From contig JBFMAF010000045.1 of assembly GCA_040755995.1 (NCBI GenBank), forward strand, positions 20,412 to 84,411: a stretch of DNA of 64,000 bases, given 5' to 3'. Positions 15,179 through 52,440 of this stretch are shown piece by piece (position 1 is the first letter of the stretch; each line of letters begins with the position of its first letter). The notes beneath the pieces were generated by a model that was not told where the DNA came from, searched no databases, and worked only from the letters and a program-made list of their open reading frames with translations. The position numbers and the translations under genes were made by a program. This stretch comes from Acidobacteriota bacterium. Lineage in GTDB: Bacteria; Acidobacteriota; CAIWXX01.

Positions 15179-15214
15179 GATACTGGAAGAAGAACCTCGA
15201 GGGAGGAGACAAGA

Positions 15215-16353: not shown

Positions 16354-16358
16354 CCATC

Positions 16359-18399: not shown

Positions 18400-18567
18400 G
18401 GAATCAGGGATTCTGTTGTCAGAGGTGGTGTTCCGGAACATCGGAAGGAAGTAGAAGCTTCCGCCGCCCCGCGACTGTGATCGGGACGAAAGCCGCAATA
18501 TGGCCACTGTCCGGAAGGATGGGAAGGCGCGGCGAGTAGGATGAACGAGAGCCAGGAGACCTGTTGC
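18400..18567 (+). ncRNA. Cobalamin riboswitch 2 (approximate bounds)
   Basis: GCCGCCCCGCGACTGTGA, GCCACTGTCC...GATGGGAAGGC, GAGCCAGGAGACCTG; upstream of btuB. Confidence 0.88.
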
Positions 18568-18615
18568 CGGTGCACACGACAGATCATTCATTGCGGTCTT
18601 CGAGGGAAGAAAACC

Positions 18616-20640: not shown

Positions 20641-20670
20641 TCAAGATCGATCCGCGCGGGCAAGCACAGA

Positions 20671-21483
20671 ATGCAATACGTTCTCAGCGGTGGAACCGGC
20701 AGGGGCCTGAAAGGGCGGTTTCCATTCAGACTCGGCACGACGTCCTACATTCTCCCAGCCGATATCGTGCCGAACGTGGAGTACCTGGCGCCCATGGTCG
20801 ACGACGTCGAGGTCCTGATATTCGAATCTGATGAGATCTCGAGCCTGCCGGACACTGCGGCTATCGAACGGCTGGTCGAACTGGCGCTTCGGCACCACCT
20901 GACCTACACGGTGCACCTGCCGCTGGATATTGATTTGGGAGCCTGTACCGATCGCCGCCAGGCGGTTGGGAAATGTCTGCGCGTGATCGATCGTGTGGCG
21001 CGCATCCGTCCATTCGCGTATGTGCTACATCTCGAGCCCCCGGACCGGCGCGCGCATGCGCCTGACGAGACGGCCGAATGGGTCCAAGCAGCGGACGAGT
21101 CGGTCGGCGAGATAGTCGAATCGATCGGTGATCCGGGATTGCTCTGCGCTGAGACCGTTGCGGTGCCGTTCGAACGGATCGAAGAAATCATAGTCAAGCA
21201 CGGGCTCTCGATATGTCTGGACATAGGACATATGGCGCTGCACGGATACGCTCTGGATGCATGCCTGAGACGCTGCTTCGCGAAGTGCCGTGTGATCCAT
21301 CTCCATGGGCTGAATGATGGGCAGGATCACAGGCACATCAAGCTGCTGGACCGGGCCTGGCGCGAGCTTCTCATGGACTATCTGTATGCGGACGCCGGCA
21401 GGGAGCGAGTCCTGACGATCGAGGTCTTTGCGCAGGAAGATCTCGACATATCCCTGGATGAAATGAGGACCCACATCAGATGA
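20671..21483 (+). CDS. cbiR: Cobamide remodelling phosphodiesterase CbiR-like (AP endonuclease 2/TIM barrel)
   Basis: FRLGTTSYILP, DDVEVLIFES, YTVHLPLD, CLDIGH, IHLHG...DH, LTIEVF; overlaps cobU start. Confidence 0.75.
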   Translation: MQYVLSGGTGRGLKGRFPFRLGTTSYILPADIVPNVEYLAPMVDDVEVLIFESDEISSLPDTAAIERLVELALRHHLTYTVHLPLDIDLGACTDRRQAVGKCLRVIDRVARIRPFAYVLHLEPPDRRAHAPDETAEWVQAADESVGEIVESIGDPGLLCAETVAVPFERIEEIIVKHGLSICLDIGHMALHGYALDACLRRCFAKCRVIHLHGLNDGQDHRHIKLLDRAWRELLMDYLYADAGRERVLTIEVFAQEDLDISLDEMRTHIR

Positions 21484-22010
21484 AGAAGGTCACGTTGATC
21501 ACAGGTGGATCGCGCAGCGGCAAGAGCCGGTATGCTCAGACGATTGCAATGCGATACGGCGGCACAAGGATCTTTGTCGCCACTGCAGAGCCGGTGGACG
21601 AGGAGATGCGCGCGCGGATCAGGAAGCACCAGGCCGAGCGGGCCGAATTGTTCACCACTATCGAGGAGCCTTACGACATTGGTAGTGCAATCGCGTCCTT
21701 GCCTCCTGGAACAGATGTGGCTATTGTCGACTGCCTGACAGTCTGGCTCGGCAACTTGATGTATCGAAACGAGCGATGCGATGTGACCGCACCGCCGATC
21801 CAACGGCTGCTCGGTATCCTCGATGATCCGCCCTGTGATGTCATCTTGGTGACGAACGAAGTCGGAATGGGTATCGTGCCTGATAGCGAGATGGCCCGTC
21901 GATACCGGGATTTGGCCGGACATCTGAATCAGGCGGTCGCGCAAAAGGCGGATCGAGTCGCCTTCATGGTCAGCGGTATACCCGTCATGATCAAAGGAGA
22001 AAAGGATTGA
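21480..22010 (+). CDS. cobU: Adenosylcobinamide kinase / cobinamide-phosphate guanylyltransferase
   Basis: [37 protein letters not shown]. Confidence 0.96.
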
Positions 22011-23065
22011 ATCTCGTTGAGACTACGATCAACGCTATAGCCCCAGTGGATCGATCTCTGTGCGCGCCGATTCAGGCACACCTCGACAACCTCACCAAAC
22101 CACGAGGGAGCCTGGGGCAACTGGAATCGATCGCAATGCAGTTTTGCGTCGCCGCCGGCACGCAGCGCCCGCGCATCGGGAGGAAGGTCATCTATTCATT
22201 CGCCGCAGATCATGGGGTGACTGATGAAGGGGTATCAGCCTTTCCGAAGGCTGTGACGCGACAGATGGTTGCGAACATGCTGAACGGCGGCGCCGCCGTC
22301 AACGTGCTCGCGCGTCACGTGAACGCCGAAGTGCGCGTGGTCGATGTGGGCGTCGACGACCCCCTGCTCGATCTGAACGGCTTGATTCGGAGAAAGGTGC
22401 GCTCGGGGACTCGGAATATGGCCAGGGGCCCGGCGATGACCGAGCAGGAGGCGAGGAGTGCAGTGGAGGTCGGCATCGAGCTCGCGATTGGAGCTATCGC
22501 CGAGGGCGCCGGACTGCTGGGGACCGGCGAGATGGGCATAGGGAACACAACGCCTTCATCGGCGATTCTCGCCACGCTCCTGCCATGCGATGTTCCCGAG
22601 GTCACCGGGCGGGGCACCGGCATCGATGATGTGACACTGAAACGAAAAATCGAGGTGATCCGGAGAGCAATCGATGTCAACCGCGGCCTGCTTGACACCC
22701 CGTTCGGCGCTCTCGCGGCCGTCGGCGGGCTGGAAATCGCGGGCATCTGCGGATTGATCCTGGGCGCCGCATCGCGGAGGATCCCTGTGGTGGTCGATGG
22801 CTTCATTTCATCGGCGGGAGCGATGGTGGCCACGAAGATGTGTCCGCATGTCACTGGCTACCTTTTCTACAGCCATAGATCGAACGAAGCGGGGCACTCG
22901 GTTTTTCTCGACAGGTGTGGCATTCGCCCCATTCTGGCGCTGGATATGCGGCTCGGCGAGGGCACCGGCGCGGCACTGGCGATGTCTGTAATCGAAGCAG
23001 CCATAAAGATCTACAATGAAATGGCGACGTTCGATTCAGCCGCAGTGTCGAGGAAAGAGGAATAG
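22007..23065 (+). CDS. cobT: Nicotinate-nucleotide--dimethylbenzimidazole phosphoribosyltransferase
   Basis: [33 protein letters not shown]. Confidence 0.96.
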
Positions 23066-23068
23066 ACG

Positions 23069-23848
23069 GTGCTGCGAGGGCTGGTGACCGCTCTCCGTAC
23101 TCTGACTGCGGTGCGGATTCCCGGACGCGACGCCGAGAGCCTGGCGGATTCGCTGCCGTGGTTCCCGGTGGTCGGCGGGCTGATAGGCGTCACTCTCGTG
23201 CTCGCCGCGCGCCTGTCGCTCTCTGCTTCACAGAGCTGGACGGATGGAGCCTCGGTCGTCACGCTCGCTGTCGGCGTCCTCCTGACCCGCGCCCTGCACC
23301 TGGACGGACTCGCGGACTGGGCCGATGGATTCGGTGGAAGCAGGAACCGCGAGCGTGTGCTGGAGATCATGAAAGACCCGCGAACAGGTACCTTCGGAGT
23401 GATTTCACTGATCGTGATTCTGCTAGCCAAATTGATCGGCTATTCACGAATCATATCAGCCGGCTCTTTTCATTGGATGATCTCGGCGTGCATCGTTTCG
23501 AGGGCGATCCAGGTGGAGCTTGCTGCGAGCCTTCCGTACGCACGAACCGGTGGGGGCACGGCGCAATCGTTCGTCTCGGGCGCGCGCGAATGGCATCGCA
23601 TTTCTTCAGCGGCGGCCGCGCTGCTGCTGGCAGCTGTGTGCAGCGGTGTGGCCGGCACGCTGCTCGTGGCCTGCGGCTGGATCGCGGCGCGTGTACTGGC
23701 GACCTGGTTCCGGCGCCGCGTCGGCGGGATCACCGGCGATCTGCTGGGCGCTTCCAGCGAGCTCGTGGAGACTGGGATCCTGCTTGTCTGTGCCGCAACC
23801 GATCTTTGGCTGAGCCGTCTCACGATATGGAGCGCACCATGGCACTGA
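23069..23848 (+). CDS. cobS: Adenosylcobinamide-GDP ribazoletransferase (cobalamin synthase)
   Basis: LHLDGLADWADG, IMKDPRTGTFG, GGITGDLLGA. Confidence 0.95.
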   Translation: MLRGLVTALRTLTAVRIPGRDAESLADSLPWFPVVGGLIGVTLVLAARLSLSASQSWTDGASVVTLAVGVLLTRALHLDGLADWADGFGGSRNRERVLEIMKDPRTGTFGVISLIVILLAKLIGYSRIISAGSFHWMISACIVSRAIQVELAASLPYARTGGGTAQSFVSGAREWHRISSAAAALLLAAVCSGVAGTLLVACGWIAARVLATWFRRRVGGITGDLLGASSELVETGILLVCAATDLWLSRLTIWSAPWH

Positions 23849-25374
23849 CAGGCGCTCGATGCCTTGCGATCCTCGGCACCGGGTCCGATGCCGGCAAGAG
23901 CGTCGTTGTCACGGCGCTCTGCCGGATCTTCAGCGACATGGGATTGCGAGTCGCTCCGTTCAAAGCCCAGAACATGTCGAACAACTCGTATGTCACACCC
24001 GATCGCGGCGAGATAGGCCGCGCTCAGGTAGTGCAGGCCGAAGCGGCCCGCGCACCGCTCCACGTCGACATGAATCCAGTGCTACTGAAGCCGAGCAGCG
24101 ATACGGGAGCGCAGATCGTGCTGCACGGCAGGCCGTTGGCAAATCGGGAAGCCGGCGAGTATTTCAAGGACACGGCCTTTCTGTTCGAAAAGGCCCTGGG
24201 CAGCTTGAACCGGCTTCGTGCATCCTACGATTTCGTCGTGCTGGAGGGAGCCGGATCCTGTGCGGAAGTGAATCTCCTGAGCATGGACATCGTCAACATG
24301 CGAATGGCGGCGGCCGCTGATGCGCCCGTCATCCTCGTGGCCGACATCGACCGAGGCGGCGTATTCGCACAGATCATCGGCACTCTCGACGTGCTTCCGC
24401 CCGCGGACAGCGCGCGGATCCGCGGCTTCATCATCAACAGGTTCCGCGGCGATGCGGCCCTTTTCGAGGAAGGAATCAGATACATAGAAGAACGCACGCA
24501 GAGGCCGGTCCTGGGACTCATACCGTATTTCCATCACATCGAGATCGACTGCGAAGACGGGATGTCCATCGACACGCTCATCGATCCGCCTGGCGGTCCC
24601 GATGCGCGCCGGATAAACATCGCCGTCCTGCGGCTCCCCCACATCTCCAATTTCACGGACTTCTCCCCGCTGCAGCGCGAGCCCTCCGTTGCGTTGCACT
24701 ATCTGATGCGGCTGCGGCCGCTCGTTGACTACGATGTCGTCTTCCTTCCGGGCACAAAGAATGTGCGGGCCGACCTGGAGTGGATGAGGCGCGAACATTG
24801 GGACAGTGCGATCCTGGATTATTCGAAGATGGGCGGGAGAGTGGTCGGAATCTGCGGAGGATACCAGATGTCGGGGAGGCTCATCCTGGATCCGAATGGC
24901 ATCGAGGGTAACCCTGGCGATACTCAAGGGCTCGGATTGCTCGACATCCGCACGACTATCATGCCGGAAAAGAAGCTGGAAACGTGCTCGGGCGTATGGA
25001 TCGCCGATGATACGCCCGTGGAAGGCTACGAGATCCACATGGGGATCACTGATCGCCTGACGAACATCCCGCATATCATCCGGCTGCAGACCCGAAGTTC
25101 CGTGGCATCGTCCGGCCTCGACGGCTCGCGATCCAGCGACGGAAGGATATGGGGCACATATCTGCACGGGCTTTTTGATGGGCCGGAATTCCGCAGCGTA
25201 TTCCTGAAGTCCATTGATCGGAGGGGTGTGTTTCAGCCAAGCGGCTCGATCGCGCTGCACGAATCGCTCTACAAGCAGCAGCAATACGACCTGCTGGCGC
25301 AGCACTTCAAATCGCATCTGGACATCGCGGCACTGATGAAGATCGCAAGGATCGGCATCACACCGGCCGTCTGA
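23839..25374 (+). CDS. cobQ: Cobyric acid synthase
   Basis: GTGSDAGKS, PFKAQNMSNNS, EGAGS, ISNFTDF, GICGGYQM, GYEIH, GTYLHG; start reset to ATG 23839. Confidence 0.95.
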   Translation: MALTGARCLAILGTGSDAGKSVVVTALCRIFSDMGLRVAPFKAQNMSNNSYVTPDRGEIGRAQVVQAEAARAPLHVDMNPVLLKPSSDTGAQIVLHGRPLANREAGEYFKDTAFLFEKALGSLNRLRASYDFVVLEGAGSCAEVNLLSMDIVNMRMAAAADAPVILVADIDRGGVFAQIIGTLDVLPPADSARIRGFIINRFRGDAALFEEGIRYIEERTQRPVLGLIPYFHHIEIDCEDGMSIDTLIDPPGGPDARRINIAVLRLPHISNFTDFSPLQREPSVALHYLMRLRPLVDYDVVFLPGTKNVRADLEWMRREHWDSAILDYSKMGGRVVGICGGYQMSGRLILDPNGIEGNPGDTQGLGLLDIRTTIMPEKKLETCSGVWIADDTPVEGYEIHMGITDRLTNIPHIIRLQTRSSVASSGLDGSRSSDGRIWGTYLHGLFDGPEFRSVFLKSIDRRGVFQPSGSIALHESLYKQQQYDLLAQHFKSHLDIAALMKIARIGITPAV

Positions 25375-37972: not shown

Positions 37973-38145
37973 CTCCCGCAGTAGGTTCATGATAATGCAC
38001 GCCTTCCCCAAAATCCAGCTGCCTACCTCTTCCCAATCCGGCGCCAATGCATTCGTGGTAACGATCACCGACCCACCGGATGACCGCGGTCACTTCAAAT
38101 CTCAGGCCTCTTGGTAGATAATATAGGGGTGGAGAAATCTTCCTG

Positions 38146-39867
38146 TTGAGCGAGTACATCGTCGCCTGTTGGAGCTGCACGGGCGAGTACGACGCCGTCA
38201 GCGCCGTCTGGTGCAATTGCGATTCCCGCAATCCGACCAAGCTCTGCCCCTACTGCCTCCGCTGTTTCTGCAGCGCCTCGCCGGAATTCGCTGACAATTT
38301 CTGGAAAAATGCCCCGAATGAGCTGCTCGAGGAGAAGTACTCCCTGAACAGCACAAAAGCACAGCTCGGTCACATACTGGTTGCGGGTGGATTGATCACG
38401 GTCGCGCAGCTCGTCCGAGCCGCCGCGCTATCGAAGGCGACCGGGAAGAAGCTTGGTGAGGCCTTGGTTTCATTGGGGCTTGTGACCGCCGAGCAACTCG
38501 AGCAGGCCCTCGCGATGCAGAAGCCGGCGGGCGGCTCGGCCGCGGTGAAGGCGCAGGCCGCGCGCGCGTCGGCGGGCAGCTCCGCTGCCGTGGCAGGGCC
38601 CACCGGCCTGCCCGGCGGTCGCGTGGAGGCAGGCGAGTCTGTCCAGTCTCCGTCGCCGCTTTCCTCCTCGTCTCCCGATCTGGTCAAGGACACGCTCAAC
38701 AACCTGATGCTCGCAGCCCTCAAGCGCCATGCCTCAGCCCTGTACATCGAGCCGTCGGAGGAGGAAGTGGTGGTCCGAGTGCGGATCGACGGGGTCTTGT
38801 TCAAGCTCAAGACGCTGCCGGCCGCGTGGCAGCCGCAGATCATGGAGAGGGTGAAGCAATGGGCCAGGCTGCAGGCCTCCGAGACGCGGATGCCCCAGAC
38901 CGGGCGGATGAGCCTTCGCGTGGGCGAGCGCACGTTTGACATGATTGTGCAGACGCTGCCGTCGGCGCAGGGGGAAGGGGCGGGTCTGCGCATCATCAAT
39001 CGTGAGTTGCTCAAGCAGAATCTGTCCGCGCTAGGGTTTGAAGAGCGAGACTACACCAATTTCATCCGTGTCGTAGACGGTACTCACGGGCTCGTCGTCC
39101 TGAACGGGCCGCTGTTCAACGCTGTGACTGAGACCGCCTACTCCGTGCTGAATCACCTCGTGTTGAAGAACAGGAAGGTGGTTTCGCTCGAATCGCCTAT
39201 CACATCGGCGTTGACCGGGGTCAACCAACTGGAGATCCAGGAGAGCCGCGGATTCGATTTCGCGCAAGCTCTGAAAACCATTTTGAATTTGAGCCCTGAT
39301 GTGATATTTCTTGGCGACATACCCGATGGCGAGACACTCAAGTTGGCGTCGCGGATGGCTTCGGCGATTCAGGTGTTCGCCGCTCTGGATTGTTCGAATG
39401 CATTCCAGGTGTTCGAACGGCTGAAGATGCTTTCCGGGAACGCGGCTCATCCGCTTGCGGCTTTGCAGCTCGTTGTCAGCCAGCGCGTTATCCGCCGCAA
39501 TTGCCCCCACTGCATCGAAAGAAAGGCCAACACGCCTTCGCTTGCCTCGGAGATGGGGCTGTCTGGAGACGAGATCCACCTCGTCCCCGAGGTGGCGCGC
39601 GGAAAGGGATGCTCCAACTGTAACGACCTCGGATACTCGGGGCGGAAGATACTGTTCGAGACGCTCGTGGTGGACGACGAGGTCCGCAATGTACTCACCT
39701 CCGGCGGTGGCCAGGAGGACTTCGAGCACGCGGCGGCTGCCCAGGACTTCCGGTCGCTCAGGATGCTCCACCTTCGCGAGGTGGCGAAGTTGGCGACGAG
39801 CCCGGAGGAGTTCATCCGATGCGCGTATCCTCGCCCGTTGCTGAGGCGAATCTATAGGGTAAAATAG
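38146..39867 (+). CDS. PilB/GspE-like pseudo-ATPase A with N-terminal 8-Cys domain and MshEN-like repeats
   Basis: ASALYIEP...VRVRIDGVL, QRVIRRNCPHC...GCSNC..GYSGR; Walker A replaced by GPLFNAVT; TTG start with RBS GGTGGAG. Confidence 0.85.
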   Translation: MSEYIVACWSCTGEYDAVSAVWCNCDSRNPTKLCPYCLRCFCSASPEFADNFWKNAPNELLEEKYSLNSTKAQLGHILVAGGLITVAQLVRAAALSKATGKKLGEALVSLGLVTAEQLEQALAMQKPAGGSAAVKAQAARASAGSSAAVAGPTGLPGGRVEAGESVQSPSPLSSSSPDLVKDTLNNLMLAALKRHASALYIEPSEEEVVVRVRIDGVLFKLKTLPAAWQPQIMERVKQWARLQASETRMPQTGRMSLRVGERTFDMIVQTLPSAQGEGAGLRIINRELLKQNLSALGFEERDYTNFIRVVDGTHGLVVLNGPLFNAVTETAYSVLNHLVLKNRKVVSLESPITSALTGVNQLEIQESRGFDFAQALKTILNLSPDVIFLGDIPDGETLKLASRMASAIQVFAALDCSNAFQVFERLKMLSGNAAHPLAALQLVVSQRVIRRNCPHCIERKANTPSLASEMGLSGDEIHLVPEVARGKGCSNCNDLGYSGRKILFETLVVDDEVRNVLTSGGGQEDFEHAAAAQDFRSLRMLHLREVAKLATSPEEFIRCAYPRPLLRRIYRVK

Positions 39868-39873
39868 AGGAGC

Positions 39874-41724
39874 ATGGCAGAGTACATCATCCAGTGCTGG
39901 AATTGCCTGGGCGAGTTCGACGTTTTCTCGGCAGTCTGGTGTGGGTGCGACCCAAAGAATCCGACCAAGCTCTGTCCATTCTGCCTGAACTGCTTCTGCA
40001 GCGCATCGGCCGAGTACAAGGGGCTGTTCTGGAAGAACGCGCCGCCGCAGCTTGCAGAAGAGCGCGCCACCCTGAACAAGTCCAAGGACCTGCTGGGCGA
40101 CCTGCTGGTCAGATCCAAGAAGATCACTACCGACCAGCTCTTGCAGGCGCTGAAGCAGCAGAAGGAGAGCGGGGAGAGACTCGGCGAGGTGCTCATCGGG
40201 ATGGGATTCATCACAAAGGACGACCTCGACGTGATCCTCGCTCAGCAGCACAGGACCCTCACGGCTGACCTCAAGAACAGGAGAGCGGATGCGTCGCTGG
40301 TCCAGAACCTCGGCCTCGATTTCTGCTTCCAGCACGTGGTACTCCCGATCGAGCGCGAGGTGTTGCCGAACAAGACGTTGACCACCATGGCCATGTCGAA
40401 TCCGCAGAACGTAGCCGCGATAGAGTACGCGCAGAAGCGCCTGGGTTCGCAGATCGTCCCGATGTTCGCCCCAGCCGACGAGATCGTCGAGCAGCTGAAT
40501 GCCCTGAAAGCTCAGGGGATCGGCGTGACTGGTCCAGGGGCGGTGGCCCCAGGCGACCTGGCGGGACTGAACGAGCAGAGAATCAAGTCGACGATGAACA
40601 ACCTCATCGCGACGGCTCTCCAGACGGGCGCCTCCGATCTGTACCTCGAGCCGGGCCCCGGCGAGATCTCGGTCCGCGCCCGCATCGACGGCGTGCTCTT
40701 CAAGATGCAGCCGGTCCAGCGGGACGCCGAGGAGGCTCTTTTCGCCCGGATAAAGCTGCTGGCGAAGTTGAATCCGCAGGACCGCGGGCTGCCCCAATCC
40801 GGCAAGATCATGTTCAAGTCGTCGGCCACCAACTACGAGCTCCAGGTGCAGACGTTCCCGACACCGGCCGGCGAGAGCCTGAATCTCAGGTTCTTCGACA
40901 AGAGCCGGCTCGTTAGGCCCCTGAATGAGATCGGGCTGAATAGCGTCGAGCTGACCTATGTTCAATCGGCCACAACTGAGCAGCAAGGACTGATCATCGT
41001 GAGCGGGCCGCTCTTCAACGCGACTCCCACCACCATGTACTCGCTGCTGCAGAGCCTGGTTGCAGAGGGACGGCGGATCGTGACGATAGAGAACACGGCA
41101 CAATGCGCGCTCGGTGGGGTCACGCAGATGGAGCTGCGGCCGGCTGAGGGAATCGGATTCGAGAAGGCCATAGGCGCCGCGATGAGCCTGGAGCCGCAGA
41201 TCGTGGCCATATTTGACTTCAACGATGTGGAGATGGCGAGGGCCGTCGCCAGGCTGGCCAATTCACTCCTCGTCCTCGTCGAAGTGGACGCGAGATCTTC
41301 GACTCTGGCCATCCCTGCCATGTCCGCCCTCGGATACCCGCCGGATGTCCTCGCCCGTCATCTGCGACTCGTGGTGAATCAGCGACTGGTGCGCAAGCTT
41401 TGCCCGCACTGCCGCGAGCAGATTCAGCCCACCGACTCGCTGCTGGCGGATCTGGACCTGTCCGAAGAGGCTTCAAAGCTCCCGCTCTACAAGGCCAAGG
41501 GTTGCTCACGGTGTCACAACATCGGTTATTCTGGACGGATCCCGATGTACGAGGTCATCTATCCGGTCGACTCCATTCGCGAAGCGGTGGCATCAAAGGC
41601 GCCGGCCGCCGAGCTCGAACGCCTGGCAACCCGCATGGGCCTCCTCACGCTCGGCCAGAACTGCCTCAACAAGGTCAGCGAAGGCCTCACAACCCCGGAC
41701 GAGTACCTCAAGGCCGGGTTTTGA
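39874..41724 (+). CDS. PilB/GspE-like pseudo-ATPase B with N-terminal 8-Cys domain and MshEN domain
   Basis: ASDLYLEP...VRARIDGVL, QRLVRKLCPHC...GCSRC..GYSGR; Walker A replaced by GPLFNATP; 6 bp after paralog A. Confidence 0.87.
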   Translation: MAEYIIQCWNCLGEFDVFSAVWCGCDPKNPTKLCPFCLNCFCSASAEYKGLFWKNAPPQLAEERATLNKSKDLLGDLLVRSKKITTDQLLQALKQQKESGERLGEVLIGMGFITKDDLDVILAQQHRTLTADLKNRRADASLVQNLGLDFCFQHVVLPIEREVLPNKTLTTMAMSNPQNVAAIEYAQKRLGSQIVPMFAPADEIVEQLNALKAQGIGVTGPGAVAPGDLAGLNEQRIKSTMNNLIATALQTGASDLYLEPGPGEISVRARIDGVLFKMQPVQRDAEEALFARIKLLAKLNPQDRGLPQSGKIMFKSSATNYELQVQTFPTPAGESLNLRFFDKSRLVRPLNEIGLNSVELTYVQSATTEQQGLIIVSGPLFNATPTTMYSLLQSLVAEGRRIVTIENTAQCALGGVTQMELRPAEGIGFEKAIGAAMSLEPQIVAIFDFNDVEMARAVARLANSLLVLVEVDARSSTLAIPAMSALGYPPDVLARHLRLVVNQRLVRKLCPHCREQIQPTDSLLADLDLSEEASKLPLYKAKGCSRCHNIGYSGRIPMYEVIYPVDSIREAVASKAPAAELERLATRMGLLTLGQNCLNKVSEGLTTPDEYLKAGF

Positions 41725-44910: not shown

Positions 44911-46233
44911 CTAGCTCGACAGCCGCTGCACCTTGAACAGAAAATGCGTCTCGCCGATCTGCAACGCGTCCCCGTCCTTCAGGTACGCCTGCGAGACCTT
45001 CTCGTCGTTCAGGAAAACCCCGTTGGTCGACTTGAGGTCGTACAGCACGAACTTTTCACCGTCGTGCTTCAGCCGGCAGTGATCGCCCGACGCCGTCCTG
45101 TCGTCCAGCACGATATTGTTGCTCCTGTTGCGACCGATGTTCAGCACTCCACACCACGGCACCGGGTAGACTGCGCCCAGGTTCTTCCCCTTCTTCACAA
45201 TCAGAACCGGAGTCTCGAGCATCACCACAGTCGTGTCCATCGTTTCGCTGCCCGGAACCCTCGCGGGATACTCTGACTCCGGCAACGGCGGAGGCTCGTC
45301 GGCCGGGATCGGAGCCGCGTACTCCTGAGGAGGCGGCGGCAGAGCGGCCTCGGACGCGCCGGCCGCAGACGCACAATTGGGGCACTCCGACAGGTAGCTC
45401 TCGATGGCGGTGCCACAGTTGGGACAGATCCGCTGGGCCTTTCGCCTGATCGCCGCAATCAACAGAACGCCGCCGAGCGCGGCAGCCAGCACCGCGCCGG
45501 CAATCCACGGCCACAACGGGCGCTCACGCTGTTCGGTCGGCGGCGGGGCCGCAGGCTTTGCGTGCGGAGCCGTCACGGGCGCAGCCTCAGCCGGCGCCGC
45601 CGCAATAGCAGGGGGCTCGAGCCGCTTCCGCAGCGTATTGAGTAGGGGCTGGATCGCCCCGTCGTCAGGCAGGTCGCCAAATATGCCGCCTGTCAGCTTG
45701 GAGATCCGTCGCAGCGGCTGTTCGTTCACCCTCTTGCCGATGCCGAACGCGCATACCGGAATGGACTGCTCCAGGCACATGCGGACGGAATCTTCGAGAA
45801 GCAGGTCCGAACCATAGTCGCGACCGTCGGTGAAGAGGAGGATGGCGCGCAGTGGAGCCTTCCGTTGAGCCAGCATTTTGCTTGCGTCGAAAATCGCATC
45901 GTAGAGAACCGTGAGCTTCCTTTGCGATTGGAAGTCCAGCCGGTATCCAGTCAGGGATCTCCCGACCTGGAAGTCCAGCAGCGTTTCGGTGTGGTCCGCG
46001 AATGCAACCACTGCATACTCGCAGCCAAACCGCGTCTGCAGGAACTCAGACGCGAGCGATACTGCTCTCTGGGCATACGATTCCGCGACACTGCCGCTGC
46101 AATCGATCAGAACGACATATGACTCCTGAACGGCGCCAAATGCCGGGCCTGCCGTGCTAAGAGCGATCAACAGGGGAGCTGCGGCCAGGGACAAGCGGGC
46201 CAATCCGAACGACCGATCAATCACGTTCACCAT
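44911..46233 (-). CDS. VWA - TM - Zn ribbon - FHA domain protein
   Basis: MIDAS DCSGS...T...FTDG; TM LWPWIAGAVLAAALGGVLLI; CPNC...CPNC; FHA IGR...SGDH...STNG; start approximate. Confidence 0.87.
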   Translation of the reverse strand: MVNVIDRSFGLARLSLAAAPLLIALSTAGPAFGAVQESYVVLIDCSGSVAESYAQRAVSLASEFLQTRFGCEYAVVAFADHTETLLDFQVGRSLTGYRLDFQSQRKLTVLYDAIFDASKMLAQRKAPLRAILLFTDGRDYGSDLLLEDSVRMCLEQSIPVCAFGIGKRVNEQPLRRISKLTGGIFGDLPDDGAIQPLLNTLRKRLEPPAIAAAPAEAAPVTAPHAKPAAPPPTEQRERPLWPWIAGAVLAAALGGVLLIAAIRRKAQRICPNCGTAIESYLSECPNCASAAGASEAALPPPPQEYAAPIPADEPPPLPESEYPARVPGSETMDTTVVMLETPVLIVKKGKNLGAVYPVPWCGVLNIGRNRSNNIVLDDRTASGDHCRLKHDGEKFVLYDLKSTNGVFLNDEKVSQAYLKDGDALQIGETHFLFKVQRLSS

Positions 46234-46337
46234 CTCCTCGATTGTCCTGTCATGTTCACCGGGCTGGGACACGCGGCTTACCCGGCGGCTAGGTATTTGC
46301 CTGACGTCTCACTACAATATAGGGGACTGGACAGGTG

Positions 46338-49127
46338 ATGTCAACGAACGGCCGGCCGGCAGTATTGAATCGCTGCCCCGATCTCCGGGCACTCCGCGCA
46401 GCAGTTCTTTCCGAGATCACCCGAGCCTGGGAGACCGACCCACTCGCGGTGCGGCGGATCGCATTCGTCTTCCGCAACGTCCAGGGGGCGAGTCTGGCCA
46501 AGCTGGCAATCGAAGAGATGGGAGCTGCCTTGGGGCGATGCAGCTTCCTTCTGCCGATCATCACCACCGCTGATCAATTCTGGACGGATCTGCATGGCCC
46601 AGTGAGAAGAGCCGACCCGATACTCCGGGAGGCGCTGCTGTCGGCTCAAACCAGGCGCATGGAGAGCGCGGGCATCACGCTGCCCTTCATGGTCCACCCC
46701 GGGGTTCTCAAGGAACTCCTCGCGCTGGACGATGATATGTCCGACAACGGTGTAGGCCTGGACGAATTCGAGGCAGCATGTCGCGAGGCGTTCGGCGGAT
46801 CGCTGGACGATCCCGGGGCGCAGCGCGCCGAGCAGCTCGGCGCATTCGTGGTCTCCGCGCTGAGGGGATTGCACGCCGAGCTGCAACGCCTCGGCCTCGC
46901 TGGCCCGGCCCGGATTCGCTCCGACGTCTCCTCGTGTGACGCACCGTGTGAGGTGGTGCATGTCATGGATCCACTGCCTCCGGCAGACCTCCGCGCCTTC
47001 GCTCAGATCTCCAACCTGCGCCGGCTCGAGATCTGGGCGACGGTCCGGCAGTGCCGTGCCGGCCTCCAGGAAAGGATCGCGAACGTTCTCCCGTCAATCG
47101 AGGCTAGGGAGATCGGTGGTTCCGCCCACAGACCGGCCCTGATCGCGCATGATGGCGGACCCGTATTCATCTGGCGCGACCGCGAGGACGATCTCACCCG
47201 AACGGCGATCCTCATCAAGCAGCTCGCGAGAGACAAACGCATACGCTCGCTGGAGCGGGCGGCGGTAGTCTTCTCCCGCCCGCTCCCGTACGTCTACCTG
47301 GCCAAGCAGTCGTTCAGCCTCGCGAAAGTGCCGTTCCAGATGGCCGACACGTACCCGCTGTCGGTCGAGCCGTGGGCGGGCGCAGTGGATCTCATTCTGC
47401 AGTTCGTGAGCGGCGGCTTCAGGCGTGAGGATGGGATCGCACTGCTGTCCAGTCCGTTTTTCGATCTCCGAGAGAGGGGGACCGATGGAGCCCTCGCGAC
47501 CGTCTATGAGTTGGCGGATGAGCTTCGAGGCGAGCGCTTCATTGCGGGGCGCGCGGGATGGGAGGGCCGAGGAATCGAGATGGGCGATCTTGACGCGCTG
47601 GCGCGCGACGGGCCGGTCTATCAGAAGGCGCAAACGCTGATGCAGATGGTCGAGCATCGCCGGCGGAGGGACCCGGAGGAACCGGACAGGCACCGCCGCG
47701 CGCGGGCCGCGGTGATGTCGATCCTCGCGTCGATCGCGAGCGCCTACGTACAGGCCGGGCCGACGGAAGCCGCGAGGCCTGCCGGGTTTCGCGCTCTGGT
47801 CCGTCGCTGGATCGATGCGCACACGTTCACTCCTCGACTCGGCGGCGAAGGCGCGCACCTGGTGGACGTCGACAGCGCCCGGCACGGCGACTTCGATCAC
47901 GTTTTCATCGTCGGGCTCGTGGCCGACGAGTGGCCGCGCAAACCCCGCCCGAACATCCTCTTCCCTCGCGCCTTCCTCAGCCGCCTCGGGTGGGAAAGCG
48001 AGGCTTACGAAGCGGCGATGCAGAGGGCGCAGTTCCTGGACCTTGTCGAGAGCGCCGGAGCCACCGTGGCGCTTTCCGCCTTCAGTCTCGAGGAGGACAC
48101 GCCGACGTCGCGTTCGCCGTTCATCGAGCAAGTCCCCGAGCTCGATACGGCACCCGTCGATCGCGGGCGCATCGCCCGGACCGTGGTCGATCCGGCAGCC
48201 GCCCTGGCATTTGGTCTGGCCGTCCCTTCGGGCAGTCCATGGCAGTCTCTCCGTGCCGTTCGATCCAGACTTACGCAAGCGCAATTCGCTGCGCGAATCA
48301 GCGCCGATCCGGTGGGGACCTTGTCTCCCAGCGGGATGGAGCTGTATCTAAGATGCCCGTTCCTGCTTTTCGCCCAGAAACTCGGGCTGAAGTCGCCAGA
48401 CGGACCGGATGAGCGCTGGTCGGGTCCTGAACGTGGAACGATGCTTCACCGCGTCATGCATGACTTCTACGAGGCATGGGACGCGGCAGGCGTGCGTCCC
48501 GTGCTCAGCGTAGACTGGAGCGAGTTCCAGGCGACCTTCGTGAAGGTGCTCGAGATCCATCTTCCGAGCGTGCCGCAGGCAGAACGGGGAATCGAGAGAG
48601 CACGGTACACCGGGTCGATGATGGCCGCCGGAATCATCGAGAAGGTGTTCAGAGCGGAGCTGGCCGGCGGTGTGAATCCTCGGCAGCGATGGCTCGAATT
48701 CGAGTTCGATGGCCGTTTCGAGTTGCGTGGCGCGGGCGACGCTGCCGAGGTGTCGATCGACGGTCGCATCGATCGACTGGAACTGGCAGTCGACGGGCGA
48801 GCACGGGTTATCGATTACAAACTCAGCAATCCCCCATCGGCGAAGGTGGCCGTCCAGCCATGGCTCTACGCTGCTTGCGTGGAGCAACTGTCGGCCGCCG
48901 GCGAGCTGCCGGCAATGGAAGGGTGCGACGGACTGTACTACCCGTTCGGCAAGGACACCATCGCGACCGCGCGCTCAGCGAACATGGCTGCCCGCGATGC
49001 CGCCATCGGCCGCGCCCTCAGCGCAATACGCGGGATGGAGGCCGGCCGCTACTCGCCCCGGCCATACTCACCGCACATCTGCGGGTATTGCGATTTCTAC
49101 CGGCTGTGCCGGAAGGAGATCGAGTGA
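46338..49127 (+). CDS. addB: AddB/RexB-like PD-(D/E)xK nuclease subunit
   Basis: Degenerate helicase-like N-terminus; LSPS..ELYLRCPF, RGTMLH, GRIDRLE, IDYK, CGYCDFYRLC (Fe-S staple pattern). Confidence 0.8.
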   Translation: MSTNGRPAVLNRCPDLRALRAAVLSEITRAWETDPLAVRRIAFVFRNVQGASLAKLAIEEMGAALGRCSFLLPIITTADQFWTDLHGPVRRADPILREALLSAQTRRMESAGITLPFMVHPGVLKELLALDDDMSDNGVGLDEFEAACREAFGGSLDDPGAQRAEQLGAFVVSALRGLHAELQRLGLAGPARIRSDVSSCDAPCEVVHVMDPLPPADLRAFAQISNLRRLEIWATVRQCRAGLQERIANVLPSIEAREIGGSAHRPALIAHDGGPVFIWRDREDDLTRTAILIKQLARDKRIRSLERAAVVFSRPLPYVYLAKQSFSLAKVPFQMADTYPLSVEPWAGAVDLILQFVSGGFRREDGIALLSSPFFDLRERGTDGALATVYELADELRGERFIAGRAGWEGRGIEMGDLDALARDGPVYQKAQTLMQMVEHRRRRDPEEPDRHRRARAAVMSILASIASAYVQAGPTEAARPAGFRALVRRWIDAHTFTPRLGGEGAHLVDVDSARHGDFDHVFIVGLVADEWPRKPRPNILFPRAFLSRLGWESEAYEAAMQRAQFLDLVESAGATVALSAFSLEEDTPTSRSPFIEQVPELDTAPVDRGRIARTVVDPAAALAFGLAVPSGSPWQSLRAVRSRLTQAQFAARISADPVGTLSPSGMELYLRCPFLLFAQKLGLKSPDGPDERWSGPERGTMLHRVMHDFYEAWDAAGVRPVLSVDWSEFQATFVKVLEIHLPSVPQAERGIERARYTGSMMAAGIIEKVFRAELAGGVNPRQRWLEFEFDGRFELRGAGDAAEVSIDGRIDRLELAVDGRARVIDYKLSNPPSAKVAVQPWLYAACVEQLSAAGELPAMEGCDGLYYPFGKDTIATARSANMAARDAAIGRALSAIRGMEAGRYSPRPYSPHICGYCDFYRLCRKEIE

Positions 49128-49165
49128 CGGAGACGGAGAACCGGAGAACGGGGGAAACCGAGACG
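49128..49165 (+). repeat. Intergenic CGGAGA short-repeat cluster
   Basis: cggaga-cggaga-accggaga-acggggga-aaccgaga directly after the addB stop. Confidence 0.7.
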
Positions 49166-49203
49166 TGGTGAGTGGAACTTGACGTTCTGGGGAAAGAGAG
49201 TGC

Positions 49204-52200
49204 TTGGCGGAGATGATCGAGGAGTTTGATCCGACGGATCCGTCGATAAGCGTGGCGGTGCGGGCGTCGGCCGGCACGGGCAAGACCTTTCTGCTCGCCA
49301 GGCGCTATCTGAGACTGATCCAGGCCGGCGTGCCGCCGAGGCGGATTCTGACGCTCACCTTCACGCGCAAGGCCGCCGGCGAGATGCGCGAGCGCATCCT
49401 CAGATTGGCGAAGGACCCCGTCATTCTCTCGCCGCCGGCGGCGCAGGCTCTGTTGGATCATTTCGAAGACATCGCCATCTCGACGATCGACTCGTTCTGC
49501 CAGGGGCTGCTTCGCGAGTTCCCGCTGGAAGCCGAGGTCGATCCGGCCTTCGAGATTCTTGACACTGCGGTGGTCGAACGCCTGCGCGGCGAGGTTGCCG
49601 AGGAGGTGGCGCACGACGCGGTTCGGCGGTCATCCCCGTTGGCGATGATGCTCGGCGAATCGCGCCTGGCGCGCGGGCTGTCGACGCTACTCGCGCGCCG
49701 GCACGTCCTGGAGGAACCGCTCTACCGCTACACCGGCGGGCTCGGCAGCGTGCCGACTCCCGGCGAGATTCTCGCACAAGCCGCTGCGACCGCGCTGGAG
49801 ATTGTGGGTGGGGAGAATGGATGGAGCCGGCTCGTAGGGCTGGGCCCCAAGGACGACGCCGTATTCGAACACGTCTGTGGGGAAGTGAACCGGCTGCTGC
49901 GCGGTGCGAATCCGCGCCTGCCAGCGCTCAACCTGTTCTTCGGTCTGTTCCTGCCGAAGAGAGACCGCGCGGCGCCCGCGTACCGGGGCTATCCAACAGC
50001 TGCTTTCAGTAGCCGCGCAGCCTACGAGGCTTACCGGCAGGCGGTGATGGATGCCGCGCCTGATGCGGAAGCGTTGAGAAGAGATGTCCGAGTCAGGCTC
50101 AACCGCGCGCTAGCGATGGAGCTCCGCGGGATCTACACCCGGGCCAAGGCCCAGTTCGCGTCGGCCAAGGCTGACGCCGGGGGGATGGATTTCGAAGATG
50201 TGCTGGACCTCGTCATCAAGATGCTGCGGACGATGCCGGAGTTCGCCCTCACCAGGTTCCATCTGGAGTCGCGCTATCAGCACCTACTTGTCGACGAGTT
50301 CCAGGACACAAATCAGCATCAGTGGGCGGTGATCGAGGGGCTCACGGAGCCGTGGCGCCACGGCGATGGGATCGTCTCGGAAGGCAGGCGGCCGACGATC
50401 ATGATCGTGGGCGACGGGAAGCAGTCCATCTACGGCTTTCGCAGCGCCGACGTGTCCGTGTTCCGACGGGCAGTCTCGCACATCTGCGAAATCGATCCGG
50501 CGAGGCCAGGCAAAGTGGCGACGCTGAGGCGGAGCCACCGCGCGACCCCACGCGTGCTCTCCTTCGTCAACGATCTGTTCGGAGCAATGCCGAAAGCAGG
50601 ATCGGAGTACGACTTCGCATTCGCCTATGACGAAGAGGATCGCTTCCCCATCGATGCCCCCTGCGCGAGGGGGGAGATCGCCATCTGCGTCGAAGGGAGC
50701 GCGGATATGTGCGCGGATGCCATCGCGGCGGAGATCTGCCGGCTTCTCGATCGAGGTGTCGTGATCGAGCGGAAGGCCGGGCAGGCCGTCGAACGCCGGT
50801 TTGGCCCCGCTGACGCGGCCATACTCTTCAGGAGCCGCACCGGCTATCAAGTCTACGAGACGGCGCTGAAGCGCGCCGGCCTGCCCACCTATGTGTACCG
50901 CGGCCTTGGCTTCTACGACCGGCCCGAGATTCGCGACGTTGACGCGCTGATAGGCTACCTGGCCGATCCCGAATCGGATCTGGCTGCCGCCTGCCTGTTG
51001 CGATCGCGGCTCGCTCGCGTCTCCGACACGGGCATCCTCAGGATCGGGCGGGAATGCGGCGGCGGGTTCGCCCGGTTCCTGCGAGGGAGCCAGCAGATGG
51101 ATCTGAGCGTGGATGACATGCTGGCGCTGAGGTGCCTGCGCGAGTCGCTCCCGAGATGGCTCCAGGCCACGGACCGCGTGCCGCCGGTGGAGCTGATCGA
51201 GTCGATCCTCGGGGAGACTTTCTACGGCGCCGAGCTTGATTCTCTGCAGGCTCGCGAGGATCTGAAGAAGCTTCTCAACATCCTGCGACGTCTGCAGAAC
51301 CGCGGGTACATGACCATGTCGCGGCTGGCGGGGCGGCTGGAGGAGGAGTCGCAGGTGGAAGAGGCGAGTGCGGTCCTGGAATCGATCGACGCGGTCAACA
51401 TGATGACGATCCACGCGGCGAAGGGGCTGGAGTTCAACGCCGTGTTCGTCGTGAATATCGCCGGCAGGAAACGCCAGGCAGACGCGGGGCCGCGTATCTA
51501 TCGGCCGGGTGGCGATCACATGCCGGCGGTCGAGGTGGTCGAAGGCGGAGTATACGAGGTGCCGGCGGCGGTGAAGGAGCGCGACATCGAGGATGAGAAG
51601 CGGCTGCTCTACGTGGCTCTCACCCGCGCCAGCGAGCGGATCTGCATCTCGACTCCGTGCGATCCAGACGGAAGAATCCCCGATCGAGGCTTCTTCTCGC
51701 TGCTGCCGGAGAGTTTTCGGGCAACGATGCAGGCGGCGGCCAGCTCGAAGGATGCGGCTGTTCACTGGGCGGCCGGCGATGGTGCCTCGCACCAACTGGC
51801 GGTGCTGCGTGCCCCGGCGGAGCACCCGCGCTGGCTTGGCGCGGAGCCGCGCTGGCTTGGCGCGGAGCCGCCCGAGGTAATGCTCTACGACTCAGAGCCT
51901 GCGAGCTTGGGGACGTCCCGCCAAAGGCGTTCCGTGTCGGAGGCGGTTCGCGGAGAACCGCCTGGTCCCACGGGCGGCCGGCGGGCGGAGGTGGCGGAGG
52001 TCGGGCGAATCGTCCACAAGCTCATGGAGCACCGGGTGTCCGTGGATGAGACACTCATCGATCGGGCGTCTTCTCTGGTGCGGCCTGAGATCCCGGTGTA
52101 CGAGATCGAGGAGATCGCCAAAAAAGCGGCTGATCTCTACGCGACACTCGCGCAGCGCGCAGATCTGCGGCAGACGCTCGCATCGGGCGAATGCCTGCGC

Positions 52201-52440
52201 GAGGTCCCATTTGTGATTGCGGAGCAGAGTGGATCGCTCGTGCGCGGTGTCGTCGATTGCGTCGTGAGACGCGACGAAGGCACGATCGTGATCGACTACA
52301 AGACAGGCCGCCGTACGGAAGCCGACGTCGACCAGATGCGCGTGTACCTCCAGGCTCTGCGCCTTCTCATGGGCCAGGCAACACGGCTCACGGGCATGCT
52401 GTTCTACGCCACCGGCGAGCCTGTGATCGTTCTCGAGTAG
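49204..52440 (+). CDS. addA: AddA/RexA-like UvrD helicase-nuclease subunit
   Basis: ASAGTGKT, TFTRKAA, VDEFQDT, VGDGKQSIYGFR, MTIHAAKGLEF, LLYVALTRA, GVVD...IDYKT. Confidence 0.88.
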   Translation: MAEMIEEFDPTDPSISVAVRASAGTGKTFLLARRYLRLIQAGVPPRRILTLTFTRKAAGEMRERILRLAKDPVILSPPAAQALLDHFEDIAISTIDSFCQGLLREFPLEAEVDPAFEILDTAVVERLRGEVAEEVAHDAVRRSSPLAMMLGESRLARGLSTLLARRHVLEEPLYRYTGGLGSVPTPGEILAQAAATALEIVGGENGWSRLVGLGPKDDAVFEHVCGEVNRLLRGANPRLPALNLFFGLFLPKRDRAAPAYRGYPTAAFSSRAAYEAYRQAVMDAAPDAEALRRDVRVRLNRALAMELRGIYTRAKAQFASAKADAGGMDFEDVLDLVIKMLRTMPEFALTRFHLESRYQHLLVDEFQDTNQHQWAVIEGLTEPWRHGDGIVSEGRRPTIMIVGDGKQSIYGFRSADVSVFRRAVSHICEIDPARPGKVATLRRSHRATPRVLSFVNDLFGAMPKAGSEYDFAFAYDEEDRFPIDAPCARGEIAICVEGSADMCADAIAAEICRLLDRGVVIERKAGQAVERRFGPADAAILFRSRTGYQVYETALKRAGLPTYVYRGLGFYDRPEIRDVDALIGYLADPESDLAAACLLRSRLARVSDTGILRIGRECGGGFARFLRGSQQMDLSVDDMLALRCLRESLPRWLQATDRVPPVELIESILGETFYGAELDSLQAREDLKKLLNILRRLQNRGYMTMSRLAGRLEEESQVEEASAVLESIDAVNMMTIHAAKGLEFNAVFVVNIAGRKRQADAGPRIYRPGGDHMPAVEVVEGGVYEVPAAVKERDIEDEKRLLYVALTRASERICISTPCDPDGRIPDRGFFSLLPESFRATMQAAASSKDAAVHWAAGDGASHQLAVLRAPAEHPRWLGAEPRWLGAEPPEVMLYDSEPASLGTSRQRRSVSEAVRGEPPGPTGGRRAEVAEVGRIVHKLMEHRVSVDETLIDRASSLVRPEIPVYEIEEIAKKAADLYATLAQRADLRQTLASGECLREVPFVIAEQSGSLVRGVVDCVVRRDEGTIVIDYKTGRRTEADVDQMRVYLQALRLLMGQATRLTGMLFYATGEPVIVLE
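51826..51870 (+). repeat. Perfect 21-bp in-frame tandem duplication inside addA
   Basis: CCGCGCTGGCTTGGCGCGGAG x2, encoding PRWLGAE x2. Confidence 0.9.

Follow-up and report, generated by a model that had tools for sequence, protein, structure and literature searches.

The locus raises the question of what two adjacent PilB/GspE-like genes with replaced nucleotide motifs may do in a window (the whole 64,000-nucleotide stretch of Acidobacteriota DNA analysed here) that lacks pilus genes. The initial annotation described a tandem pair of intact ORFs of 573 and 616 aa, 6 bp apart, without recognizable pilC, pilin or secretin genes nearby. Both statements were borne out, the latter by a Pfam scan of the 42 ORFs of the window. 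The following features were assigned:

38094..38122, + strand: weak sigma-70-like promoter upstream of A (consensus match only, 9/12)
38146..39867, + strand: ORF A, 573 aa, TTG start, intact; orthologues G001, G002, P0051 and P0053
38152..38352, + strand: Cys-rich N-terminal domain of A, 8 Cys, putative zinc binding; 67-70% identity to orthologues
38362..38520, + strand: MshEN-type tandem c-di-GMP motif of A (NF053729, residues 73-125, 53.4 bits)
38683..39816, + strand: dead PilB/GspE core of A, N2D and CTD with tetra-Cys (PF00437, residues 180-557, E 8e-67)
39874..41724, + strand: ORF B, 616 aa, intact; the 6 bp that separate it from the stop codon of A resemble a ribosome-binding site
39880..40080, + strand: Cys-rich N-terminal domain of B, under the strongest constraint within the locus
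40093..40248, + strand: MshEN-type tandem c-di-GMP motif of B (NF053729, residues 74-125, 63.3 bits)
40264..40512, + strand: N1D/GSPII domain of B (PF05157, residues 131-213, E 3e-10), absent from A
40573..41709, + strand: dead PilB/GspE core of B (PF00437, residues 234-612)

In ORF B, the Cys-rich domain is followed by the MshEN motif, N1D and the dead PilB core. ORF A begins with the same two elements and carries a low-complexity, Ala/Gly/Pro-rich linker at the place of N1D/GSPII (PF05157), then the dead core and a basic C-terminal tail specific for A. The initial annotation did not mention three of these features, namely the 8-Cys N-terminal domain (residues ~3-68), the MshEN-type motif and the N1D present in B only. 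As for the putative promoter, three sigma-70-like sites were found between positions 37800 and 42000 vs. 0.9 expected.

Alignment to the canonical PilB of the same genome clearly showed that the motifs are replaced just as had been claimed: Walker A reads GPLFNAVT in A (starting at 39106) and GPLFNATP in B (starting at 41005), the Asp box SLESPIT and TIENTAQ, Walker B FLGDIPD and AIFDFND, and the His box SAIQVFAALD and NSLLVLVEVD, respectively. The RVS arginine is likewise lost (Ile in A, Gln in B), and all four zinc cysteines of the C-terminal tetra-Cys motif are kept in both proteins. The same residues were then followed in 205 relatives (Cys-domain ATPase-like proteins), with PilB numbering transferred by motif and the roles of E357 (Mg-binding), E395 (catalytic) and the Arg fingers R271/R286 taken from PMC5424180. 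A canonical Walker A (GxxGxGK[ST]) was found in none of the 205, and the Walker A Lys is lost in 204 and retained in one. E357, which is Thr in A and Gln in B, persists in three relatives, E395 (Asp in both A and B) in 18, and R271, lost in A and B, in two; the His box is absent from A and B and survives elsewhere only in traces (T411 in 4/205, H413 in 2/205, H420 in 2/205). Within the P-loop, Thr and Gly gave way to bulky hydrophobic residues, with no fixed residue in place of the Lys (Ala, Cys, Val, Ser or Thr).

Other parts of the core are well preserved in the family: R455 of the open nucleotide-free interface in 198 of the 205 relatives, the R and D of RIDG in 196, the tetra-Cys motif in 201-203, the first Glu of the Asp box in 198, the P-loop P in 200 and the P-loop G in 189, and the pore-loop D398 in 154; QRLxR is also kept, and the position of R286 is occupied by Lys (181/205) or Arg (19/205, and Arg in both A and B). 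The Pfam scan matched PF00437 in both proteins. The AF2 model of B has a pLDDT of 91.3, and its core is superposable on the best chains of PilB (5tsh) and PilF (5oiu) with a TM of 0.92-0.93 and an rmsd of 1.9-2.2 Å (Foldseek). At the same time, the scores with the extension-ATPase models TIGR02538 (262.2 bits for A, 277.6 for B; cut-off 675.65) and TIGR02533 (261.4 and 263.3; cut-off 630.25) stay far below the cut-offs. In other words, A and B keep the shape of PilB without the residues needed for binding and hydrolysing ATP. Their cores are under purifying selection, with a dN/dS of 0.11-0.18 vs. 0.02-0.06 for PilB, i.e., they evolve about three times faster than PilB, and the inactive state is maintained. 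The dead cores share 32% identity with the resident PilB, and the cores of A and B share the same 32% with each other.

When was the activity lost? The tree places A and B as sister clades (support 0.96 and 0.92) inside one family clade, and none of the 205 relatives bears a canonical Walker A, so that the inactivation preceded the duplication, as suggested before, and does not reflect local decay. The argument originally offered for this, the identical GPLFNA in both paralogues, fails: the hexapeptide occurs in only two of the 205 sequences, A and B themselves. Since the orthologues read GPLFNG for B and GPLFNS or GPHFNS for A, and A and B use different synonymous codons at two of its positions, its Ala is convergent, and the common GPLFNA is partly a coincidence. 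The differing synonymous codons also rule out recent gene conversion as its source. One divergent member, P0178, was considered as an active ancestor on account of its Walker A Lys and rejected, for it has neither E357 nor the His box nor either of the Arg fingers; its basal placement on a long branch is unreliable.

The conservation of the gene pair is narrow. Adjacent A and B were observed only in the family of this genome, where the order is kept in both of the two other genomes, and most carriers have a single copy. B retained the ancestral layout after the duplication, and A lost N1D, had half of its c-di-GMP motif weakened and gained the tail, which suggests a division of labour.

The putative input of both proteins is a 53-residue tandem motif which exceeds the 38-bit cut-off of NF053729 (MshEN) in A as well as in B. 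By the published definition (six key residues per half: R, L, G, L, L, Q; PMC5013675), B bears 5/6 in the first half, with Leu for Arg, and a fully canonical second half (6/6), while A bears 3/6 in the first half, where Arg, the second Leu and Gln are missing, and 5/6 in the second. Both critical Gly residues are present in A and B. Across the family, the Gly, Leu and Gln positions are kept (first Gly in 204/205, second in 201/205), and the first-half Arg is found in 144 of the 205 relatives. Because this Arg is lost in both proteins, and A also lacks the second Leu and Gln, binding of c-di-GMP by A and B may be weak.

The Cys-rich domain comprises about 65 residues with 8 Cys in each of A and B, and it probably binds zinc. 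In B it is 92-94% identical to the orthologues vs. 68-72% for the core, with a dN/dS of 0.02 and a model pLDDT of 93.6. Foldseek retrieved nothing from the PDB at E ≤ 0.001 (best E 3.7), and a comparison with 48,161 chains gave a best Z of 3.0 (rmsd 2.8, 47 aligned), a weak value that neither assigns nor excludes a fold. The search against PDB sequences yielded one non-significant match (E 0.17), Pfam a weak match in one of 14 members (E 0.16), and the ESM Atlas a best score of 0.75. This absence of fold and family matches is no proof of a new fold.

The domain was found in 85 of 401 genomes sampled across Acidobacteriota; among viral contigs, 25 pattern matches contained no confirmed relatives. 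Besides the dead core, it is fused to receiver, GGDEF and EAL domains, with such arrangements as GGDEF-EAL-Cys-REC and Cys-GGDEF. Among the 150 representatives listed, 62 combine it with a receiver, which it directly precedes, and 34 with the dead core. The dead core always carries the Cys-rich domain, with the MshEN motif directly after it, and these two are the parts kept by every family member. Some lineages lost the core and retained the N-terminal part alone: core-less Cys-MshEN-N1D genes were present in four of the five genomes chosen for short matches. As N1D is missing from A and from a subfamily of ~530 aa, and the core from other members, neither of the potential docking surfaces is universal. 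The genome studied here encodes no other Cys-domain protein, and a direct link of A and B to receiver fusions is therefore impossible in this organism.

A genuine PilB is indeed encoded elsewhere in the genome, as had been supposed: we found pilB-pilT-pilC, as well as a secretin gene in a second operon. The 79 family loci revealed no conserved dedicated operon. Their commonest neighbour is the housekeeping gene gcvT, divergent upstream at 53 of them, and an intact PilB lies within 10 kb at four (five counting one partial match); an intact PilB-type gene is nearby in two lineages. Co-occurrence with PilB is uninformative, since 396 of the 401 genomes have a PilB-like match. A complex prediction for the cores of B (residues 226-616) and the resident PilB scored 0.00 in both runs, which gives no answer on binding.

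Taken together, a core with the PilB shape that lost the ATP-splitting residues and gained a c-di-GMP-type motif and a Cys-rich domain is most likely a signal-controlled regulator and not a motor. We are about evenly divided on the more specific proposal that A and B arose by duplication of an old pseudo-ATPase of the Acidobacteriota with PilB/GspE ancestry, which acts as a signal-controlled adaptor for type IV pilus or secretion machinery whose genes lie elsewhere in the genome. Output would be provided by the Cys-rich domain as a protein-binding module, and input by the domain that follows it, i.e., phosphorylation in the receiver fusions and c-di-GMP in A and B. Locked without nucleotide, the dead core would, together with N1D, serve for oligomerization and for docking on parts of the pilus machine (PilB, PilC or stator), and c-di-GMP would thereby tune where or whether pili extend. 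Counting against this adaptor are the rarity of intact PilB genes near the family loci, where gcvT prevails, the incomplete c-di-GMP motif of A and B, the docking surfaces that are not universal, and the lack of another Cys-domain protein in this genome. Such a non-catalytic, c-di-GMP-gated pilus adaptor with putative binding partners is the best reading of A and B, and its chances of being right or wrong look much the same to us. Beyond this locus, we tentatively regard it as possible that several Acidobacteriota lineages possess an undescribed network for signalling, founded on a single new output domain (Cys-rich and probably zinc-binding). Such a network would be wired to phosphorylation by the receiver fusions, to c-di-GMP synthesis and breakdown by the GGDEF/EAL fusions, and to c-di-GMP sensing by the family of A and B, where a pilus motor turned non-catalytic chassis would bring the domain to the pilus machine and gate the working PilB.

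The adaptor reading has to be weighed against others that also start from a dead core. A and B might represent nucleotide-free PilB copied for signalling alone, controlling a non-pilus output (exopolysaccharide, biofilm) and having given up contact with the pilus motor. According to PMC5544727, nucleotide-free PilB was proposed as the active signal in Myxococcus xanthus, where the Walker A variant K327A signals exopolysaccharide production without pili. The near-universal loss of the Walker A Lys together with the kept open-interface Arg fits such a state, as does a family mostly unlinked to pilus genes in which the core can be lost. However, neither polysaccharide nor chemosensory genes are conserved neighbours at the 79 loci, and many members retain the pore-loop Asp and N1D; we consider this explanation rather unlikely.

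More doubtful still is a dead subunit that joins the PilB/GspE hexamer and brakes it, its entry being set by c-di-GMP and the Cys domain. The superposable fold and the conservation of RIDG, QRLxR, D398 and basic character at position 286 would suit a ring subunit, and section 11 of PMC11656802 discusses hetero-oligomers of extension ATPases as an open possibility. Yet a core of 32% identity to the resident PilB that evolves about three times faster is loose for a tightly packed ring, and the core-less forms persist in four genomes.

It is improbable that A and B are nucleotide sensors that still bind, or slowly turn over, nucleotide via a remodelled pocket. Conservation of the first Asp-box Glu, of P and G in the P-loop and of basic character at position 286 leaves some room for this, as does the Lys of P0178, but the bulky P-loop substitutions and the variable Lys position speak against it, and even P0178 has lost E357, R271 and the His box. 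The obligate, self-contained A-B hetero-oligomer, an alternative raised in the initial annotation, is weakened and seems very improbable: the genes lie on the same strand, 6 bp apart, in a kept order and with complementary architectures, but the cores are only 32% identical and the adjacent pair was seen in one family only. As most carriers have a single copy, the ancestral function needs no second subunit. Finally, decaying pseudogenes or an assembly artefact have a negligible probability: the cores do evolve faster than PilB and were lost in some lineages, but the frames are open in all close relatives, dN/dS is far below 1, the model is confident and the family is widespread in the phylum.

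Our literature search, which covered mostly openly accessible papers, found no description of this family, although the supplementary MshEN tables of PMC5013675 could include members; within the same scope, no natural catalytically dead PilB was found. Databases label these proteins "PilB" or "TadA", so that the inclusion of non-motors leads to an overcount of pilus motors in Acidobacteriota. The family lends itself to testing two questions raised in the literature: do extension ATPases assemble into mixed oligomers, and can PilB signal as a separate, nucleotide-free state? The Cys-rich domain, compact, well modelled and matched by no family or fold, ties two-component signalling to c-di-GMP signalling in an abundant, poorly studied phylum, and it can be expressed and assayed alone.

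With the extension ATPases PilB/PilF/GspE (TIGR02538, TIGR02533; PDB 5tsh, 5oiu, 5zfr), A and B share the N2D and CTD fold (TM up to 0.93), the tetra-Cys zinc site, the MshEN motif, R455 and RIDG, and B also N1D; they differ in lacking the Walker A Lys, E357, E395, R271 and the His box, in having the extra Cys-rich domain and in lying outside a pilus operon. The MshE/MshEN receptors of c-di-GMP (PMC5013675; NF053729) have the same tandem motif, scored above the cut-off in A and B with both critical Gly, whereas here it sits on a dead ATPase behind an undescribed domain and without the first-half Arg. The cyanobacterial PatA-type PATAN-REC regulators PixG/PixE place an output domain directly before the receiver, and this domain is reported to bind PilB1 and PilC (PMC11181946); the Cys domain takes the same pre-receiver position in the 62 of 150 listed representatives. 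The likeness is architectural only, for A and B have no PATAN homology or receiver: neither gave a Pfam match in A or B, and the Cys domain had no PATAN match. TfpB of Acinetobacter baylyi and PilU, second motors on one pilus, are like A and B in being extra PilB-family paralogues that possibly work on the main motor's machine, but section 11 of PMC11656802 describes them as ATPases, and A and B score only 211 and 223 bits with the TfpB model (cut-off 850). Finally, PilB K327A of M. xanthus (PMC5544727), the nucleotide-free signalling state, lost the Walker A Lys and retained the c-di-GMP motif just as A and B did; it is an engineered allele of a working motor, whereas A and B are natural, separate and multiply degenerate genes.

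The two ORFs described in the initial annotation were both found intact:

38146-39867, + strand: ORF A, 573 aa
39874-41724, + strand: ORF B, 616 aa, 6 bp after A

Each matches Pfam T2SSE over ~380 residues and stays below the cut-off of the PilB model (262 bits for A, 278 for B; cut-off 675.65). Alignment of A and B to the genome's own PilB gave the same four replaced nucleotide motifs as first described. The PilB-like layout was also recovered, but two N-terminal elements had been overlooked: both proteins begin with a ~65-residue domain bearing 8 cysteines (Cys domain), immediately followed by the MshEN motif, a 53-residue tandem c-di-GMP motif (NF053729; 53.4 bits in A, 63.3 in B, cut-off 38). 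Behind the motif B has N1D (GSPII domain, PF05157), which in A is replaced by an Ala/Gly/Pro-rich linker; the basic C-terminal tail of A is common to A orthologues. AlphaFold2 modelled B with confidence over its full length (pLDDT 91.3, pTM 0.63); superposition of the core on solved PilB and PilF structures gave TM 0.92-0.93 and rmsd 1.9-2.2 Å for the best chains.

In agreement with the initial annotation, no pilC, pilin or secretin gene was found among the 42 window ORFs scanned with Pfam. The window also encodes a 1181-aa fusion of a receiver domain (REC), a Ser/Thr kinase and a TonB C-terminal domain (11048-14593), and a cobalamin uptake/salvage cluster (15151-25374; binding protein, FecCD permease, ABC ATPase, TonB-dependent receptor, CobU, phosphoribosyltransferase, CobQ-like). 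At 44911-52440, a vWA-FHA protein with a small CxxC..CxxC motif adjoins an AddAB-like nuclease/helicase pair, and a spermidine-synthase-like membrane protein gene is convergent with B.

A homologue search gave 323 matches; 120 were listed, B among them, and the other 119 contained none of the four canonical motifs. Individual residues were then counted in sequences gathered via the Cys domain, so that the counts apply to Cys-domain PilBs and not to dead PilBs lacking that domain: 361 sequences (proteins and loci) yielded 225 with an ATPase match, 212 of them unique; the 7 under 480 aa were left out, and 205 remained. Residue roles follow PMC5424180, with Geobacter numbering transferred by motif. 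These relatives do not preserve the Walker motifs, whose presence had been held to speak against the original proposal: canonical Walker A occurs in 0/205, and the Walker A Lys in one. Likewise lost are the Mg-binding E357 (kept in 3), catalytic E395 (18), the arginine finger R271 (2), T411 (4), H413 (2) and H420 (2). Retained are the first Asp-box Glu and R455 (198/205 each), Arg and Asp of RIDG (196 each), the tetra-Cys (201-203) and the pore-loop D398 (154), and the R286 position is basic (Lys in 181, Arg in 19). In PilB, R455 bridges the interface in its open, nucleotide-free form, whereas the closed form with bound nucleotide depends on T411, the His box and R271 (PMC5424180). As R455 is kept and the others are lost, the family may be read as PilB locked in its empty state. 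Since five catalytic features fail and the scores lie below the family cut-offs, A and B, judged by sequence, fall outside the PilB/GspE ATPases.

Other parts of the protein are dispensable. N1D is absent from A and, separately on the tree, from a subfamily of ~530 aa that is frequent in records titled Vicinamibacteria. The core is absent in four of five genomes chosen for short matches (G155, G196, G296, G330; G266 is full length), and all 11 fetched loci of the other strong matches in these genomes have an intact Walker A. The core-less gene of G330, with gcvT on one side and haem-synthesis-like genes on the other, occupies the same place as full-length copies elsewhere. The invariant remainder is the Cys domain together with the MshEN motif. 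In the latter, the critical Gly residues are kept in 204 and 201 of the 205 sequences, Gln in 196 and 197, and the first Arg in 144; B has Leu at the first Arg, and the first half of the motif in A retains 3 of 6 key residues. According to PMC5013675, binding is abolished when the Gly is lost and becomes 10- to 36-fold weaker when Leu is changed. Together with the residues kept, these effects predict that B probably binds c-di-GMP and that A perhaps does so weakly.

The Cys-domain profile matched 85 of 401 phylum genomes (48 of 227 genera). GTDB contigs gave 182 confirmed stretches, from which 79 loci were kept; 74 of their titles name Acidobacteriota or what we take to be its lineages, and 5 only "uncultured bacterium". 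Among 1.84 billion representatives there were 332 matches. In the 150 of these that were listed, local profiles recognised REC joined to the Cys domain in 62 (44 single, 15 tandem, 3 other), a dead core in 34, MshEN without core in 22 and nothing in 32, many members of the last two groups being short fragments. Pfam, run on 93 of these 150, showed three kinds of fusion: GGDEF-EAL-Cys-REC (2), Cys-GGDEF (1) and PALP-Cys-REC (2). By a crude pattern, 44 of 63 REC matches have a phospho-acceptor Asp context. A and B are the only carriers in the source genome (G000). The Cys domain is the most constrained part of B (92-94% identity to orthologues vs 68-72% for the core; dN/dS 0.02); its model is confident (pLDDT 93.6), and from the cysteines alone it may bind zinc.

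Stand-alone Cys-REC proteins of ~205-230 aa (loci L156-L160, L163, L165, L169, L171, L172, L175) occur several per genome in the taxonomic family f19, and two adjoin CheY-like and phosphotransfer-like genes; in L169 a PALP-like gene immediately precedes the Cys-REC gene. Proteins of 800-1450 aa (L161:4664-6112 and P0123-P0139) end in two Cys domain-REC units, their N-terminal parts being mostly Pfam-negative. GGDEF-EAL-Cys-REC proteins (L167, L168, P0209, P0257) have an unusual order with REC C-terminal, and P0198 and P0212 fuse a PLP-dependent (PALP) enzyme to the Cys domain and REC.

The Cys domain nearly always stands directly ahead of a signal-input module, REC or the c-di-GMP motif. On the simplest reading, it would be an output, protein-binding module gated by this neighbour. 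A and B would carry it on an empty PilB chassis which, with N1D in the case of B, would take it to the pilus base; N1D is thought to contact the stator, according to PMC11656802. We give this reading, with the c-di-GMP motif as the gate, an even chance. The data establish fold, motif loss, selection, architecture and distribution; partner, oligomeric state and direction of effect, like zinc and c-di-GMP binding, we infer.

The main alternative, rather improbable in our estimate, is a dedicated copy of a nucleotide-free signalling PilB acting off the pilus; such a PilB has been proposed for Myxococcus (PMC5544727). A brake subunit within mixed rings is unlikely, and a nucleotide sensor is quite improbable.

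As to the pilus, the neighbourhood weakly suggests a link: in nine f19 genomes (one lineage) coordinates place the dead gene upstream of pilB, in the same orientation and 5-14 kb away, and in three other loci an intact PilB-like gene (L110:11859-14519, L105:8758-11541, L119), absent from two related loci, lies tail-to-tail with it, its product having a ~270-aa N-terminal extension and two c-di-GMP motif stretches. A dedicated operon with the dead gene was not found among the 79 loci; gcvT is divergent upstream in 53, and 4 (5 if one partial match is included) have an intact PilB-type gene no more than 10 kb away. A PilB-like match occurs in 396 of 401 phylum genomes (316 above cut-off), so co-occurrence is uninformative.

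The genuine PilB/GspE postulated elsewhere does exist: contig C28 of G000 encodes pilB-pilT-pilC, then a sensor kinase and a sigma-54 regulator, and C52 carries further machine parts, an operon PilC/GspF-ATPase-GspM-secretin. A third intact PilB/GspE-type ATPase is on C37 (L003:7453-8898), with a gene directly after it.

The same genome holds other relatives. The C37 ATPase apparently has two hydrophobic membrane segments where N1D would be. A third PilB-like gene, far more degenerate (L004:7128-8864; C10, about 211127-212863), encodes 579 aa with the tetra-Cys and no Cys-rich domain, the Walker A Lys and His box being gone; it scores 115 bits with the family profile vs 62 with canonical PilB and clusters with P0178 on long branches. 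A PilT-family ATPase (C24:317808-319970) has long extensions at both ends, which by eye we take to be cNMP-binding-like and N1D-like in front and PDZ-like at the end. MshEN-like motifs were seen in at least six more proteins (C41, C32, C3, C8, C37), and by eye several of these have J-domain/TPR-like tails; GGDEF-type motifs number 14.

An obligate A/B oligomer is highly improbable. The adjacent pair, divergent from hisS-aspS, is conserved in both other genomes of the same family (G001, G002), but elsewhere the dead gene is mostly single-copy, G143 and G070 having a second, divergent copy on a separate contig. A FastTree of cores, 55 from the family and 25 canonical (one of the latter from G025, a genome flagged as unpublished and also included in the tallies, on which by itself no conclusion depends), gave a single dead clade (0.875) with A and B as sisters (0.96). 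They were paired again (0.915) in another tree, to which PilT outgroups were added and from which 11 long-branch rows were removed; here the family lay outside canonical PilB, although long-branch error may affect this position. As the whole clade is dead and A and B are sisters within it, inactivation preceded duplication, as first proposed. The shared GPLFNA offered as evidence did not hold: it occurs in 2/205 sequences, A and B themselves; the orthologues of B read GPLFNG and those of A GPLFNS or GPHFNS, and at two codons A and B show synonymous differences. The Ala is thus, on this comparison, convergent and the P-loop sequence loosely fixed.

Decay has virtually no probability. In the dN/dS comparison suggested initially (G000 vs G001 and G002, dS near saturation), the A core has 0.16 (second pair saturated) and the B core 0.18 and 0.11, against 0.06 and 0.02 in the working PilB; both cores are under purifying selection, yet evolve at about three times the rate of that motor.

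The dead PilB family is real, conserved and undescribed within the literature searched (coverage incomplete, supplements outside it), where no account of the family, the Cys domain or a natural dead PilB was found. Judging by their motifs, A and B may work like a c-di-GMP-responsive pilus regulator. The proposed gated Cys output module resembles cyanobacterial PATAN-REC regulators, in which an output module gated by its neighbour binds PilB1 and PilC (PMC11181946); the architectures are alike without homology.
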